This document shows positions 1-4,629 of a stretch of 20,343 nt of DNA, in pieces. A model generated the notes under the pieces. It saw only the letters and a program-made list of their open reading frames with translations. It did not search any database and was not told where the DNA came from. Numbering within the stretch: the stretch's first letter is position 1; every line of letters begins with the position of its first letter. A program made the position numbers and the translations under genes. The stretch is from a virus, in the IMG/VR virus record IMGVR_UViG_3300022745_000022, positions 1-20,343 of that record; one strand, given 5' to 3'.

Positions 1-179
1 ATGGACAACTCCCTGTTGCGGCAATAGCCGAACCATGAGTAGGCGATATCCATGAGGTTCTTGAAGTTCTCCCGGCCGATCGGTGAGTTCTGAAGGTTCT
101 TTAGCGCGATACGGTTGAGCATGCTATACACAAGAACGAGCTTCACATCGTTGTGGAAATTCTCATCTCTCTGGAGCAT
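1..179 (-). CDS. Hypothetical protein, runs off the left edge (MLQRDENFHNDVKLVLVYSM...)
   Basis: Translated by hand: open from ATG at 179 to the window edge; the start overlaps the 3' end of the upstream gene; A/C-rich leader. Confidence 0.65.
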   Translation of the reverse strand, partial: MLQRDENFHNDVKLVLVYSMLNRIALKNLQNSPIGRENFKNLMDIAYSWFGYCRNRELS

Positions 180-597
180 GGGTTTGGTTTTGTTTACGGG
201 TGATGAATCGTGAGGCACTCGGCGTGTCGTAGTAGACACGCCAATAGCGGAATAGTGTGGTCATAAGGGCCATGTAGTGCTGGACAGGGGGGAAATCCGT
301 ATCCAGCATTCCATCGACGGCATGTACGGAATTGATGACCGTGGTGTGGTCACGATCACCCATGAGCGTTCCTATGAACTTCAGGGTGGCCGGGGTGTAC
401 CTGCGCAGGAAGAATCCCACCACGTGTCTCGCGTAGATCACATCCTTCTTCCTGGTCTTGCCGAACAGCTGTTTCCTGGTCACGCCGTCACTGTACTCCA
501 GGACCTTGTCCAGTATGTACTCTATCAGCTCGTACGAACTGCGAGCCTGTATTGGACAGGTGAAGGGGAACATGATGGGGTAATCAGGACATATCAT
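163..597 (-). CDS. DnaA C-terminal (domain IV) helix-turn-helix-like DNA-binding protein, 144 aa
   Basis: RKKDVIYARHVVGFFLRRYTPATLKFIGTLMGDRDHTTVINSV matches the DnaA domain IV signature (R..ARQ.AMYL.R.LT..SL..IG..FG.RDHTTV). Start placed at 597, where ATGA overlaps the polymerase stop. No AAA+ domain. Confidence 0.85.
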   Translation of the reverse strand: MICPDYPIMFPFTCPIQARSSYELIEYILDKVLEYSDGVTRKQLFGKTRKKDVIYARHVVGFFLRRYTPATLKFIGTLMGDRDHTTVINSVHAVDGMLDTDFPPVQHYMALMTTLFRYWRVYYDTPSASRFITRKQNQTHAPER

Positions 598-1142
598 TTT
601 GTCCATACAGGTGTGATGTTGGTTTCTGCACCCAGGGAACCATCCTTGATGACGAACTTGGCGGCTTCCAGCATGCAGGCATGCTGCAGTGTCTTCCATT
701 GTTCGGCATGGGATTGTTCCACGCGTGCGGTGATCTGGTCATGTACCTGCATGACAAGCTTGACGTACGGCTCCAGCTCTCCACCATGGATGGTCTCGAA
801 CATCAGCCATACGGCAAGCTTGGTCATGTCGGCCGAAGAGCCCTGCACGGGCATGTTTTTGCTGGCCCGTTCTATGGAACCCAATGTGGGATTGTACTGG
901 CTACCGGTGAGGTGGCTCTGTATGTCCGCTCTGGCGAACTTCCAATAAGGAAACCAGCGTTTCCGGTGAAATGGTGCGAGGGTCTGGATGAATCCGAAGC
1001 GCACACCAAAGGATCCGAGGAACCTCAGCATCTTACCGATGCCGGGAAACTTCCTGAAATACTCGTCGATGAGTGCCTGGGCCTCGTTCGGAGTAATGCT
1101 CAAGGTGGCAGCAAGCTTGTACTTGCTCATCCCATATGCCAA
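594..1142 (-). CDS. polA: DNA polymerase family A, exon 2 (end of motif B to C-terminus)
   Basis: Begins TTG GCA TAT GGG ATG (LAYGM), completing motif B. Contains ERASKNMPVQGSSADMTK and motif C VMQVHDQI. Confidence 0.95.
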   Translation of the reverse strand: MAYGMSKYKLAATLSITPNEAQALIDEYFRKFPGIGKMLRFLGSFGVRFGFIQTLAPFHRKRWFPYWKFARADIQSHLTGSQYNPTLGSIERASKNMPVQGSSADMTKLAVWLMFETIHGGELEPYVKLVMQVHDQITARVEQSHAEQWKTLQHACMLEAAKFVIKDGSLGAETNITPVWTK

Positions 1143-1714
1143 CTATGGGGAATCCCTGATTTCTCAGGGCTTGGACTGTCCCTTTGTGTATTTTCCTTTA
1201 TCGTCTCTAACGCAGTGATGTTCCTGATGACACCGTTTGCACAGTGGTTCCAGATTATCAACTGCATTATTCGTACGATCGTGATCCTTGTGATGGATCA
1301 AAGTAGCTCTCACACCACATCTATTGCATATTCGACCGTGAGTTTCAAATCCCAGTTTGGTGTAGTTGCCCACTCCAGTTTTGTACATGTGATTCGAAGT
1401 CCCTAGTTGTGCGCCGCCGGAACCTACATTGGGATATTTGATCCGGCCGGTCTTGTGAGCGTGACGAAGTGCAATGAATGCACTGCGACATCTTGCACTA
1501 CAATAGATAGCATTGCGATACTTACCTGGTGGGATGTCCCCACCACATTTAATACACACCTTCCGTCCAGTCTCTACACACGCCTCCGTGGACATCTCCA
1601 CGGTGCTTGGCTCGGGATTGCCTCCAACATTACTTGCTGAGGTTTCCCCGACTTTGAAAGGTTTTACTTCGGCTTGGCTATTCTGAGTGTTCATACTCAA
1701 AGATATTGTTTTTA
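1143..1714 (-). mobile_element. Group I self-splicing intron (572 nt) in the DNA polymerase gene
   Basis: Exon 1 ends in U (TTCGGT) and the intron ends in G (CCCCATAG); removal restores KTINFG-LAYGM in frame. Pairings seen: P1 ACTTCGGT/GCCGAAGT with a U.G pair; P10 GCCAA/TTGGC; P3 ACCTTTC/GGAAGGT; P4 TCGGG/CCCGA; Q-like GGCAATCCCGAGCCAAGC; P6a CCGTGGA/TCCACGG; P7 GACTG/CAGTC; P8 TGTGTATT/AATACACA; P9 CCCTGA-GAAA-TCAGGG. Confidence 0.95.
1164..1694 (-). CDS. Intron-encoded HNH homing endonuclease with N-terminal Cys4 zinc finger
   Basis: CIKC...YCSARC zinc finger, then CNRC...HHKDHDRTNNAVDNLEPLCKRCHQEHH (HNH core). The functional domains sit in the P8 loop. Start uncertain: TTG 1700, ATG 1694 or a later ATG/GTG. 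Confidence 0.9.
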   Translation of the reverse strand: MNTQNSQAEVKPFKVGETSASNVGGNPEPSTVEMSTEACVETGRKVCIKCGGDIPPGKYRNAIYCSARCRSAFIALRHAHKTGRIKYPNVGSGGAQLGTSNHMYKTGVGNYTKLGFETHGRICNRCGVRATLIHHKDHDRTNNAVDNLEPLCKRCHQEHHCVRDDKGKYTKGQSKP

Positions 1715-3343
1715 ACCGAAGTTGATGGTCTTCACCGCTGTTCTCAAGCGCTTGTGTTTCTTACAATTGCACTTGGCTCCGTTGTGCGCATAGTACGCAC
1801 AATCCGGATTAGCAGCTTTCTTCCAGTCATCCTTGTACACCACCTCAGCGCACACACTGTGCAGGTCTTTTCCGTTTTTCAGGGCATCGAGCCAGACAGG
1901 GTCCTGGCTCATGTACGCGATCACCACCAGCTCTTGGGAAGCATAGTCACTATCCACATATACCCACCCTGGCTCCGCGACGAATGCGTTCCGGTAACGA
2001 TTACCCACAGATTCCTTGGAGGGAATATTCTGCATGTTGGGACCGTAGGAACTCAGGCGTCCGGTACTGACGATGGGATTGAAGTTGGTGCGTATGCAGC
2101 CGTCGGTCTCCACATGTTTCTCGATGAAGGTGGTGCCGTAGGTGGTGATGAGCTTCTTGGCGTCCTTGTACTCTTTGAGAGCGATGCCGATAGGGAATGG
2201 GAACTTGGCCATGGCTTCCTTGTCCAGGCTGGTCAGGCTGGGCTGCAGGACCTGGAACAAGGCGAGGACCTGTGGCTGGGAAGACCAATTGATCGTGAAC
2301 TTCCCAGCGGGTACCATCAGGTTATTCTCCACCAGGAAATCCCGGTGATGCTTCTGCAGGTAGTCCAGGAATTCTCCCTCCTCACCGGCCTCCAGACACT
2401 GCAAGGCATAGCGCTTCAGTGGATCTTCGATGACGGTGATCCTGAGGTAGCGCTTGATGATGGCCTTGGTGGCGCCCGGCATGTCCGGGAACAGCATGGA
2501 GAGTATGGCGACCTTGTGGGCGCGGGAATTGAGGTTCACGACGAGCCTATCCTCATCGGAGTATAGGCCCATGTCCTTGGCCTTGTGGATCAGTGCAGGG
2601 TTCTGGTGCATGCAAAGCTCCAGGTCCACTTCTGCGTGCTGTACCACCGGCCAGGCCAGTTCCTCGTTCTCCAGCCACTTCTGTTTGTCCAGTGGCATAC
2701 CGTGGAAGGTCATCTCCGCCAGGCCCGGGAGGCAAGCCATGTCTAATGCGCAGGTATATACAAGTTGCTCGCCATACAGGCGGAGCATCTGCATATCCCT
2801 GAGCTTGAACAGGTGCCTTACGTCCTCAGCCGCATACTCGACCTTCTCCGGGGTGATGATATCATCGCCAAAGGAAGTCTGCTGTTCCTTGGAGATGGTC
2901 AGGCATATGTAGCGCTCCAGCAGGGACTTCAGGGAATAGAAGCCGAACTGTGTGTTGTCCGCATCTTCATCATCCTCCGTATCCCTGGCCAGCTTGCCAC
3001 AGTTGAGTTCCATCTCGGCAACCATGGTGCAATACACATTGCGCATCACGATGCCGGCAAAGCGCAGGACCACCAGGTCAAAGTATGCGTTGTGCAGTAC
3101 CTTGGTCCGGTAGTCCCTGAGGATGCTGTGGATCTCCTCCCGCTGTCCTCCCGTGAGGAAGGACCACTGGAGCAGCCATTCATCACGGCCATTGCCGAAC
3201 TGGATGAGGATAAGCTTGCGCTCGCACCACATGTGATGCACATTGGTCTCCGTATCCACCATGAATTCCCCCTGTTTAGTAGCCCACTGAAGGAACTGCT
3301 CAAAGGTGCAGTCGCACACCTGGCGGGAATACGTGTGGATCAT
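1715..3343 (-). CDS. polA: DNA polymerase family A, exon 1 (3'-5' exonuclease and polymerase up to motif B); spliced product 725 aa
   Basis: ExoI VDTET, ExoII HNAYFDL, ExoIII YAAEDV; STGRLSSYGPNMQNIP; motif A DSDYASQELVVIA; DLHS; motif B start RTAVKTINFG (Phe at the E. coli F762-equivalent position). No 5'-3' exonuclease domain, as in phage PolA. Confidence 0.96.
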
Positions 3344-3528: not shown

Positions 3529-3935
3529 ACTTCTTCTTTGTAGCGCAGGTCCACGTCCTCCATGTCGCCATGGAAGTCGATGTCACTGCGCAGGTAAACG
3601 TGAAAGCCGAACTCATCGATCACATCGCTGCGTTCGTGCTGTACCCGTTTCCAGGCGGCCACGTCGGCGATGGTCTTGAGTTTGGCCATGATGATCTCTG
3701 TCTCGTACTGTGTGATGAAGGGTTCATGGCTCAGGGTATTCACGATACGGGCCTTTGGGTATTGTGCGAGAAGTTCCCGCAGTTCTCCCAAAGGCCCGAT
3801 CAGCTTATACTTTACGGTACGCTTCAGTGTGTACATCCGCAGGAACGGGTTGTAATCAAAGAAGGTACCGGAGCGCGGCTCGTTGATGTAGTGGATGAGC
3901 ACCTCATCATTGGGGAGTGGCTCCAGTTTCAGCAT
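3525..3935 (-). CDS. Hypothetical protein, 136 aa
   Basis: Fills the operon slot between ung and the next gene, with overlapping stop/start. Confidence 0.75.
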   Translation of the reverse strand: MLKLEPLPNDEVLIHYINEPRSGTFFDYNPFLRMYTLKRTVKYKLIGPLGELRELLAQYPKARIVNTLSHEPFITQYETEIIMAKLKTIADVAAWKRVQHERSDVIDEFGFHVYLRSDIDFHGDMEDVDLRYKEEV

Positions 3936-4629
3936 TGTCTACCCATTTTATAGGTTCATGACCGTTCTCGGTGAGCCACTCGTTCACACGAATGAATTGC
4001 CTGCCACCGGTGAAACGCATCTTGCCCCCGGAGTAATTCTCATACTGCGGATGACAGGAGCGTATGACATTGCAACTGAAGCTCTGTACGATAGGAGTTG
4101 CTGTGTCATCGGCCTGCTTTCCCCATAGCATGAAGGTTACCGGGCGTCCCGAGAGCTGCCCCTTGATGGCTACTGTCTCCATGATCTTCTGGGTGAGTTG
4201 CTGCCATCCCCAATCCCGGTGGGCATTGGCCATACGGTAGGTGGTGGTCAGTACGCTGTTCAGCATGAGTACGCCTTGCTTGGCCCAGTCTGTGAGGTTG
4301 GGATTGGTGCGCACCCCGTATCCGCTCAACTCGAGCTCCTTGAAGATGACACGAAGGGACGGTGGTATGCTGGGAAGCTGACTGCTGAAGGACAGGCCAT
4401 GGGCTTCATTGCCCGGGTATGGGTCCTGGCCAAGGATCACGATCTTGGTGTGGCTGGGCTGACAAAGCCTGAGGGCCGTGAAGATGTCCTTCTTGGCCGG
4501 CCTCAGTTTATCGCCCTGCTGGTCCACCCGTGCCGCGATCTTGGCCATCCAGTCTGACCGGAAGTGGGGAAGCAGGACATCAGCCCATTCCTCTCCCACA
4601 TTGTCGGCCAGGGTCATTTCTTTTTCCAT
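3907..4629 (-). CDS. ung: Uracil-DNA glycosylase, family 1
   Basis: KIVILGQDPY water-activating loop, AHGLSFSS, IPPSLRVIFKEL, WAKQGVLMLNSVLT, FMLWG and catalytic HP. True start may be ATG 4617 (ATGA overlap). Confidence 0.95.
   Translation of the reverse strand: MEKEMTLADNVGEEWADVLLPHFRSDWMAKIAARVDQQGDKLRPAKKDIFTALRLCQPSHTKIVILGQDPYPGNEAHGLSFSSQLPSIPPSLRVIFKELELSGYGVRTNPNLTDWAKQGVLMLNSVLTTTYRMANAHRDWGWQQLTQKIMETVAIKGQLSGRPVTFMLWGKQADDTATPIVQSFSCNVIRSCHPQYENYSGGKMRFTGGRQFIRVNEWLTENGHEPIKWVDNAETGATPQ

Follow-up and report, generated by a model that had tools for sequence, protein, structure and literature searches.

The DNA considered here is a stretch of 20,343 nucleotides (nt), positions 1 to 20,343 of IMG/VR virus record IMGVR_UViG_3300022745_000022, which we call the window; the phage genome to which it belongs measures 94,294 bp at 53.8% G+C and was judged complete. 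The minus strand, on which all window features noted below lie, carries a family-A DNA polymerase gene predicted to be interrupted at motif B (NFG/LAYG, the slash marking the insertion point). The interruption is, as judged from its sequence, a mobile group I intron with a zinc-ribbon/HNH homing-endonuclease gene inside it, its splicing and homing activity being predicted. The open reading frame (ORF) of this nuclease runs through almost the entire ribozyme, and the same arrangement is kept by a family of related introns. The features that make up the locus are as follows.

1715..3343, minus: exon 1 of the DNA polymerase A gene (Pfam DNA_pol_A_exo1, 2.9e-19; DNA_pol_A, 5e-30, profile 30-199)
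1143..1714, minus: predicted group I intron of 572 nt, with no P2 and with the body of the ORF within L8 (Rfam RF00028 and covariation)
1712..1714, minus: TAA stop in the exon 1 frame, intron nucleotides 1-3, directly after T1715
1164..1694, minus: endonuclease ORF of 176 amino acids, from ATG 1694 to TGA 1166-1164
594..1142, minus: exon 2 of the DNA polymerase A gene, beginning LAYGMSKY.. (Pfam DNA_pol_A, 7.1e-27, profile 218-365)

Exon 1 encodes the 3'-5' exonuclease domain and the N-terminal portion of the polymerase domain, ending in ..RTAVKTINFG at T1715, and the last intron nucleotide is G1143. Joining the exons gives ..KTINFG-LAYGMSKY.., which follows the motif-B pattern, and the regions of Pfam DNA_pol_A to which the two halves correspond adjoin each other; splicing would thus restore the host gene. 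The RF00028 covariance model aligned end to end (model 1-253) over 1724..1153 with 34.6 bits (E 4.6e-7 in a 701-nt search), short of the gathering score of 50, and an Rfam scan of the whole window at gathering scores returned a tRNA only. The low score arises because the insertion of ∼360 nt in L8 and the absent P2 both cost score, and the gathering score is in any case a curation threshold and not a defining structural trait of group I introns. No match to the intron was found by blastn among 50,697 phage records.

To describe the ribozyme and its frame we used a set of 37 distinct introns with an intact ORF (520-613 nt) from IMG/VR and metagenome contigs, all of them at the NFG/xxYG site. 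One of the two patterns used for detection lay in the HNH body, so that cores with a broken frame could also be detected. Changes of base pairs were counted across 19 aligned introns for P1, P3, P4 and P5, and across all 37 for P7, P8 and P10. In the window, the helices (P), with their loops (L) and joining segments (J), were assigned as follows.

1715..1722, minus: 5' strand of P1, the last eight exon nucleotides ACTTCGGT, 8/8 paired with the guide sequence at 1673-1666
1666..1678, minus: internal guide sequence (IGS), GCCAA (1678-1674) followed by GCCGAAGT (1673-1666), translated S-Q-A-E-V
1662-1656 with 1564-1558, minus: P3, enclosing P4, P5, P6 and the P7 5' strand (region 1558..1662)
1651-1646 with 1617-1612, minus: P4, pairs covary
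1642-1634 with 1627-1621, minus: P5, pairs covary
1603-1597 with 1592-1586, minus: P6, loop GATG, judged by inspecting the alignment
1572-1568, minus: P7 5' strand, pairing with CAGTC 1178-1174
1557-1551 with 1192-1186, minus: P8, flanking the nuclease body
1174..1192, minus: P8 3' strand (1192-1186), J8/7 (1185-1179) and P7 3' strand CAGTC (1178-1174), translated ..KYTKGQS
1154..1169, minus: P9 hairpin CCCTGA-GAAA-TCAGGG, with the ORF stop TGA 1166-1164 inside it

The pairing of ACTTCGGT with GCCGAAGT places a U1715.G1673 pair at the 5' splice site, which falls after U1715, and the pairs that flank P1 (exon position -7 and intron nucleotide 1) covary across the 19 introns. P10 joins GCCAA to TTGGC of exon 2 (1142-1138) by five of five pairs; 27 of the 37 introns form four or five of these pairs, in 22 strand combinations that track the exon 2 sequence. 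Double compensatory changes were found at four of the five predicted P3 pairs, each in 4-10 of the sequences. P8 retains 7/7 pairs in 35/37 introns (15 strand combinations) and P7 5/5 pairs in 36/37 (five combinations), while P9, likewise supported by covariation, bears a GNRA-type cap, mostly GAAA. The sequences thus support a conserved group I core (P3-P8, P4-P6, the P3/P7 pseudoknot, J3/4, J6/7 and J8/7), and this covariation indicates that the ribozyme is under selection simultaneously with the reading frame that passes through it.

Counted with its stop codon, the frame measures 531 nt from ATG 1694, or 537 nt from the upstream TTG 1700, which is 93-94% of the 572-nt intron. A sequence-only reading of the window had drawn this frame from the P1 loop through the IGS and P3-P7 to a nuclease in L8 and a stop in P9, with ATG 1694 in the loop of a small hairpin, and its lengths, coordinates and helix assignments agree with the ORF and the covariance-model alignment obtained here. 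The first 45 codons are made up of L1, the P10 partner, the IGS, P3-P7 and the 3' strand of P3; after the nuclease, the final ten codons consist of the 3' strand of P8, J8/7, the 3' strand of P7 and half of P9. In total the window ORF overlaps the core by ∼170 nt. Four segments of the ORF and its start region recur in what follows.

1698..1705, minus: TATCTTTG, a match to TAnnTTTG that ends 3 nt before the ATG, candidate promoter
1682..1701, minus: L1 hairpin in which 1701-1695 and 1688-1682 form a 7-bp stem around the 6-nt loop ATGAAC (1694-1689), ViennaRNA minimum free energy -6.1 kcal/mol
1560..1694, minus: codons 1-45, the N-terminal extension, probably dictated by the ribozyme (divergence pattern and AlphaFold2)
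1193..1550, minus: zinc-ribbon and HNH nuclease body in L8 (alignment, Pfam HNH_3, AlphaFold2)

TTG 1700 was rejected as the start codon, given that ATG is universal in the family and that the TTG sits within the hairpin stem.

The body shows the motifs of an HNH homing endonuclease, namely CxxC..CxxxC followed by HH..N..N..H with flanking CxxC pairs, all conserved in the homologue alignment, in which C123, C126, H134-H135, N143, N147, C152, C155 and H159-H160 are each at least 90% conserved. The window copy scores 19.6 bits against Pfam HNH_3, under the cut-off of 24.8, and its homologues carry PF13392 and PF01844. AlphaFold2 gave a predicted local distance difference test (pLDDT) of 70-95 over approximately residues 45-170. 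A profile search of solved structures returned nothing at E ≤ 0.01, and Foldseek against the PDB found HNH and zinc-ribbon proteins as weak neighbours, the best at E 0.068. In most loci the identity of the ORF to that of the window is at least as high as that of the flanking polymerase exons, which bears indirectly on homing, cutting by the product being a prediction. The reading as a non-functional remnant was rejected in view of the invariant catalytic and zinc residues together with an excess of wobble changes in the nuclease body, where divergence at third positions is 1.61 times that at positions 1 and 2.

A protein search recovered 33 homologues at 48-79% identity, of which 32 are full-length (167-184 amino acids) and one is a C-terminally truncated protein of 118 amino acids. 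All 33 carry the N-terminal extension, M..(S)QAEVKPFKVGE..GNPEPS..ACVETRRKVC. At the nucleotide level all 37 introns have their guide sequence in frame with the nuclease, and between the IGS and the zinc ribbon this frame contains no stop codons, compared with 114 and 170 in the two alternative frames. The 5' core of homologous introns, which the sequence-only reading had proposed as a check, is therefore stop-free in 37/37. An ATG in frame is present in L1 in every one of them, and in 11/37 no other ATG, GTG or TTG precedes the first cysteine of the zinc ribbon; a stop in the exon frame lies inside L1 in 36/37. Across the family 93-99% of the intron is in one frame. The ends of the frame vary: it starts at intron nucleotides 1 to 56 and ends with 5 to 41 nt left to the 3' splice site, at a TAA in P8' or J8/7, a TAG in P7', a stop in P9, or one 5 nt before the splice site. 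The only broken relative (L021, identical to L113) has its break in the nuclease body. In this relative (L021:2499-3050) the nuclease is frameshifted and the frame ends after 78 codons, with the ribozyme helices intact and P7 compensated (GAGTA/TACTC), and it resembles a homing cycle at the stage of endonuclease decay.

Because the family of 37 introns keeps the frame, its phase and the L1 ATG, the full-core frame is more than chance. We take this conservation to indicate that the 5' extension is held open by selection, and the L1 ATG is very probably where translation of a full-length product truly starts. The end-to-end overlap of ORF and ribozyme that the sequence-only reading described from one copy is in this respect supported by the whole family.

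What the extension encodes is a separate matter, and here the RNA appears to have the upper hand. Relative to positions 1 and 2, third-position divergence is 0.89 in the extension, as against 1.61 in the nuclease body, and AlphaFold2 (with an alignment of 34 sequences) assigned residues 1-42 a pLDDT of <50 and no secondary structure. The window peptide of residues 1-45 begins MNTQNSQAEVKPFK. Within it the two strands of P3 are read as the residues that follow AEVK and VET, respectively (PF and GRK in the window), and these residues vary non-conservatively and in step among relatives (KPF/GRK, KTR/RHE, KDR/RHG). The extension is probably a passenger peptide, its amino acids set by RNA pairing rather than by protein function.

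One pair of P7 is likewise read twice, with consequences for the length of the ORF. The helix usually takes the form ACTAG...TAGTC, in which the TAG of P7' is the stop of the ORF. In the window, L012, L020, L082, L099 and L106 the 3' strand is CAGTC, and the 5' strand is ACTGG in the first five of these, where P7 was scored. The change of a single A-U pair to G-C thus alters codon 43 from AGA (Arg) to GGA (Gly), seen as VETRR and VETGR, and in the 3' strand of the same pair converts the TAG stop to CAG (Gln). It is because of this pair change that the window ORF reads on to P9; in L082 the frame ends with 5 nt of intron left.

Several observations weigh against reading the extension as translated. 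In the window alone, 11.6% of shuffles of the 44 codons from the ATG to P8 lacked an in-frame stop, in line with the caveat of the sequence-only reading that ∼45 stop-free codons can arise by chance. Other possible starts in frame are present in the window copy (GTG 1601, ATG 1595 and GTG 1559), the missing protein-level selection in the extension would also be expected of an untranslated region, and the relatives share ancestry, so that the counts given above overstate their independence. In one alternative the nuclease is translated from an internal start, either GTG 1559 by P8 or ATG 1595 in the P6 loop, the upstream frame being a by-product of ribozyme conservation. The shuffle result, the lack of a wobble signature and the predicted disorder of the extension would fit it, as would the nucleases of three more distant introns (L027, Klebsiella phage KpS11 and an Acinetobacter phage), which begin at the zinc ribbon. 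The internal codons themselves, however, are poorly kept: the equivalent of GTG 1559 is GTA, TTA, CAT or CTA, and hence not a start, in 8/19 aligned introns, which speaks against the P8 boundary as the start, named by the sequence-only reading as a possible refutation of its own account, and ATG 1595 is not conserved. Moreover, the 11 introns noted above offer no internal start at all before the first zinc-ribbon cysteine. A by-product of ribozyme conservation is also hard to reconcile with the variable segments taken by themselves (P3 strand, P5/L5 and P6), which are free of in-frame stops while the other frames carry 52 and 101, or with the distances from the IGS to the zinc ribbon (105, 108, 111, 114, 117 and 120 nt), every class of which is a multiple of 3. 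Finally, GTG 1559 and ATG 1595 are preceded by G/C-rich sequence embedded in helices, unlike the leaders of genes in this genome. We consider an internal start highly improbable and retain the L1 ATG.

The more distant introns also bear on how the overlap came about. L027 shares with the family its insertion site, guide sequence, core motifs and ribozyme type, encodes a related HNH nuclease and has the same TAG stop in P7'. Its L1 of 13 nt lacks an ATG, its core frame contains a stop, and its ORF (2618-3007) begins in L8 behind a Shine-Dalgarno (SD) sequence of its own, GGAGGAG-N5. In KpS11 the order is AGGAGGAGGAG-ATG, four residues and then the first cysteine; the Acinetobacter phages are similar, and the 5' cores of both contain in-frame stops. 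Stops in the 5' core, a second possible refutation named by the sequence-only reading, were accordingly met in L027, KpS11 and the Acinetobacter phage, all distant, and in none of the 37 close relatives. Matches to Klebsiella (query 9-161) and Acinetobacter (query 15-161) sequences by tblastn were considered as further cases of the same architecture and rejected on account of these stops and the SD-led start at the zinc ribbon; their N-terminal similarity arises because conserved nucleotides of the ribozyme core are read as protein. Since relatives exist in which the ORF starts in L8 or P6 (L027, KpS11 and the Acinetobacter phage), the sequences indicate that the 5' extension is secondary, the nuclease gene having spread out of L8 in both directions.

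L039 (900-1000) and L042-L046 have the nuclease in a related intron, within its P6 region. L039 has an ATG in an L1 with a 4-nt leader (TAAA-ATG-GCGGAA) that is in frame and open into the nuclease, and an SD-like AAGGA-N5-ATG at the zinc ribbon; L044 resembles it. L039 may be an independent or an intermediate instance of 5' creep.

Spread of an ORF from a peripheral loop into the core by loss of a stop and use of an upstream start is established under the name of core creep (Edgell, Chalamcharla and Belfort, 2011, PMC3073962), as the sequence-only reading had noted. The biggest overlaps tabulated there are 81 nt in the Synechococcus lividus large-subunit (LSU) intron (P6/P7/P3/P8/P9.0/P9) and 61 nt in the Synechocystis tRNA-fMet intron (P1/P2), and the authors noted that large overlaps could be mis-annotations. 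In the family described here the stop position varies among relatives, in keeping with the core-creep model, which also predicts a relative such as L027; the family differs from the tabulated cases in that nearly the whole ribozyme is in frame and the start is backed by 37 introns. We found in the literature no description of this intron family, nor of a phage or bacterial intron ORF spanning the whole core, and the overlap of protein code and ribozyme is the most extreme conserved one that we have found described for a phage.

Nearest in setting is the I-HmuI intron of phage SPO1 (with its relatives in SP82 and Bastille), which like that of the window interrupts a phage family-A polymerase and carries an HNH ORF in P8. 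There, however, the ORF overlaps the core by 9 nt in P8 (PMC3073962, Table 1), as against ∼170 nt in the window, and the insertion site corresponds to E. coli Pol I position 674 (PMC3428280), whereas that of the window lies in motif B at ∼763/764. The window nuclease gave no match to the SPO1 nuclease, or to any solved structure, at E ≤ 0.01. By E. coli Pol I numbering, introns in phage polymerases are known from sites 674, 676 and 881 (PMC3428280), and motif B is an additional one. The polymerase gene of the closest relative (L001) holds another group I intron, whose core is similar (AATCCTGAGCCAAG.., GCAGAGACT), ∼1.3 kb upstream (L001:1150-1420) in the GRLSS..KP/N motif, the site used in SPO1, Bastille and Pf-WMP3 (674); the window polymerase is uninterrupted there.

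The same motif-B site is occupied in Klebsiella Mydovirus genomes such as KpS11, as ..YG/IMYG, and in the Acinetobacter phages the NFG-equivalent site (RAFA) is occupied. Their zinc-ribbon/HNH nucleases are 34-35% identical to that of the window over the body, but the ORF is located in the P6 region of a larger intron with a GAAGATATAGTC J8/7 and a strong SD sequence of its own, and the 5' core is untranslated. In GenBank the polymerase of these phages (L080:950-2150, Acinetobacter phage vB_Ab_1137_KEN_02; L079:1470-2170, KpS11) is listed as two or three coding sequences (CDSs) with an HNH or hypothetical CDS between them, and both loci contain group I cores that are not annotated as introns. 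The Acinetobacter locus L080 seemingly has two introns, one of them without an ORF at ∼950-1188.

Creep that ends in fusion of the ORF to the upstream exon is common in fungal mitochondria (PMC8393795). Such ORFs have likewise crept through the 5' core toward signals of the exon, and L013 alone in our set is fused in frame. The window ORF, in contrast, is in frame +2 to exon 1, is separated from it by a TAA, has its own ATG in L1, encodes an HNH-type nuclease and resides in a phage, where transcription and translation are coupled. The "hidden", out-of-frame ShiLan HNH insertion in mycobacteriophage methylase genes (PMC11855218) is also filled almost entirely by its ORF, which starts 18 bp in and stops within the last 4 nt; there too no ribosome-binding site (RBS) is recognisable and leaderless initiation was proposed. 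That insertion is not demonstrable as an intron and is open in the frame of the host gene (PMC11855218), unlike the window element, with its demonstrable group I ribozyme and a stop in the exon frame.

For expression of the nuclease, the closest parallel is I-TevI of the T4 td intron, whose RBS is sequestered and whose ORF has 20 nt in common with the core (Gibb and Edgell, 2010; Gott et al., 1988; both as cited in PMC3073962). As far as the account given there goes, T4 td and the window share a hairpin around the start, an exon-frame stop just inside the intron and, possibly, an internal promoter; the window differs from that account in having no RBS, in placing the AUG in a hairpin loop within the P1 loop, and in that its promoter is a motif match.

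The start contexts of the 37 introns fall into two classes by the length of L1. Fifteen introns have a short, unstructured L1 of 14-26 nt, with the ATG at intron nucleotides 1-9 in 14 of them and at nucleotide 18 in L022. Relative to the stop of the exon frame, this ATG overlaps as ATGA in nine and as TAATG in two and lies within 11 nt in three, and the last (L013) is the in-frame fusion to exon 1; such a layout is classic for termination-reinitiation. The other 22, including the window, have a long L1 of 40-52 or 82 nt, in which the exon-frame stop is at nucleotides 1-3 in 21/22 and a hairpin holds the ATG in or beside its loop; these hairpins are equivalent to that of the window, but their stem sequences differ. 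In 21/22 long-L1 introns a box, TAnnTTT followed by G or A, ends 3-4 nt before the start codon. Variation is confined to the two bases between the fixed TA and TTTG, and the TA lies outside the hairpin stem. TAnnTTTG is the -7 promoter consensus of the Bacteroidota sigma factor sigma-ABfr (PMC7366714). The start contexts suggest, on this evidence, either coupling to exon 1 or an internal promoter of Bacteroidota type.

Signals elsewhere in the phage genome are compatible with such a host. A 4-mer SD core was found upstream of 8.8% of long ORFs, compared with 15.5% at random positions, and leaders are A-rich at -14 to -10; SD-poor initiation with A-rich leaders is the Bacteroidota style (PMC7366714). 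The closest cultured relatives of the polymerase are crAss-like Bacteroides phages, at 25-27% identity. TAnnTTTG is depleted in the phage genome, with 15 copies as against 35 ± 6 expected (z ∼ -3.4). Two copies outside the window (∼29,834, plus strand; ∼80,731, minus strand) share the longer sequence TTTGAAnTTCCAyTAnnTTTG just upstream of ORFs, and these two sites may be promoters for the host RNA polymerase. SD counts on the 5-kb flanks of the relatives were too noisy to link introns with an L1 start to SD-less phages.

From these elements the following scheme can be proposed. A ribosome on the ORF would cover the guide sequence and all core helices, leaving that RNA unable to splice meanwhile; conversely, P1 and the L1 hairpin, once formed, would conceal the ATG, and the folded pre-mRNA would splice to give polymerase mRNA. 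The start would have shifted to L1 because the host does not use SD sequences, an SD inside L8 being useless there. In L1 the ATG would adjoin the stop of exon 1 ribosomes and, in the long-L1 forms, would also follow by 3-4 nt a -7 box of host type. Transcripts initiated at the box would start at about the A of the ATG and lack both the 5' exon and the 5' arm of the hairpin; they could form no P1, would not splice and would serve as a dedicated nuclease mRNA. For the window, the route that we tentatively favour, with confidence somewhat short of even, is translation of RNAs that cannot form the L1 hairpin, whether started at the box or opened by a ribosome terminating at TAA 1714-1712. In general the start contexts leave any one expression route somewhere between doubtful and, at its best, not quite evenly balanced. 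Exclusion of translation and splicing on a single molecule, as the sequence-only reading proposed, is sound on the geometry and on published work in T4. The switch between polymerase and nuclease production that it drew from this exclusion is conjectural; reinitiation beside the ATG, a separate transcript or translation of the excised intron could each circumvent the exclusion, and all three routes yield the full ORF of 176 amino acids.

The box raises the possibility that a separate, unspliceable and (nearly) leaderless transcript is the only source of the nuclease, with the ATG masked in the pre-mRNA, following the logic of T4 I-TevI. Its occurrence in nearly all long-L1 introns at a spacing of 3-4 nt, with TA and TTTG fixed, is in keeping with this, and the position of the TA outside the stem means that the hairpin does not account for its conservation. 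The match to sigma-ABfr (PMC7366714) and the genome-wide depletion point the same way, and a transcript so initiated would be free of the hairpin's 5' arm. Set against this, the promoter is a motif match with six specified bases, the window copy has no -33 TTTG at the usual distance, and the phylum of the host rests only on the translation signals and the distant polymerase similarity. The short-L1 class, besides, has no room for a box, and leaderless mRNAs are rare in Bacteroides, where ∼3.7% of 5' untranslated regions are <10 nt (PMC7366714). As the sole source of the protein, such a transcript seems to us rather unlikely.

The exon-frame stops, for their part, would be explained if ribosomes that translate exon 1 and terminate in L1 start the ORF on the pre-mRNA, which would tie nuclease output to polymerase translation and delay splicing. 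The near-universal stop in L1, its close apposition to the ATG in the short-L1 class and the L013 fusion speak for termination-reinitiation, and long-L1 introns keep a gap of almost fixed size, 17-22 nt, which would set the 5' arm of the hairpin at the edge of the footprint of the terminating ribosome. Yet the ATGA overlap is nearly automatic where a short loop with ATG-AAA needs an exon-frame stop, and the conservation of TAnnTTTG is left unexplained. We regard reinitiation as possible, with considerable doubt that it is the route.

The positions of the AUG close to the intron's 5' end would also suit an excised linear intron that serves as mRNA, with splicing first and translation afterwards. 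Excised introns are known to act as mRNAs in the case of nuclear ribosomal DNA introns, e.g. I-PpoI. P1 would then be gone and the AUG would lie 1-23 nt from the 5' end (56 nt with the 82-nt L1), the short-L1 introns offering the best examples. But P3-P9 could still fold around the coding region, and both the box and the ATGA overlaps would be left unaccounted for, so that this route appears decidedly improbable.

Returning to the scheme of an L1 start reached on RNAs without the hairpin, its evolutionary corollary is that creep of the 5' end to L1 was an adaptation to SD-less hosts. An RBS cannot be placed in a folded ribozyme loop, and two other solutions would have been found, obligatory coupling to translation of exon 1, at its stop, in short L1 and a leaderless internal transcript starting at the AUG in long L1. 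This account is speculative, and on the sequence evidence we lean against it.

Two neighbouring genes may be mentioned. Directly downstream of exon 2, the translation of an ORF at 163-699 (minus strand) contains an RDHTTV signature like that of DnaA domain IV. Upstream of the polymerase, an ORF of 240 amino acids at 3907-4629 (minus strand) contains the uracil-DNA glycosylase motif ..ILGQDPYPG.., recognised by eye.

The components of this locus, whether the group I intron, the HNH homing endonuclease or the core creep, are of known kinds, and together they form a real, conserved and extreme variant. What is new is how far the overlap extends, how strong the comparative case is, a twice-read P7 pair that toggles a stop codon, and start contexts that point to expression independent of SD sequences. 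Core creep has so far been argued mostly from single annotated examples, and the 37 introns together with an unextended relative give it a well-supported extreme, found in a phage, where transcription and translation are coupled. Gene callers and GenBank list such loci as split polymerase CDSs with an HNH or hypothetical CDS. The family also provides a comparative data set on dual coding, in which covariation in P3 and P7 appears directly as amino-acid changes, and it makes testable the question of how an intron-encoded protein is expressed without harming splicing. If the proposed expression is true, T4-like control of a gene within a gene would have been reinvented with Bacteroidota signals, the same nucleotides acting as promoter, RNA structure, ribozyme and coding sequence.

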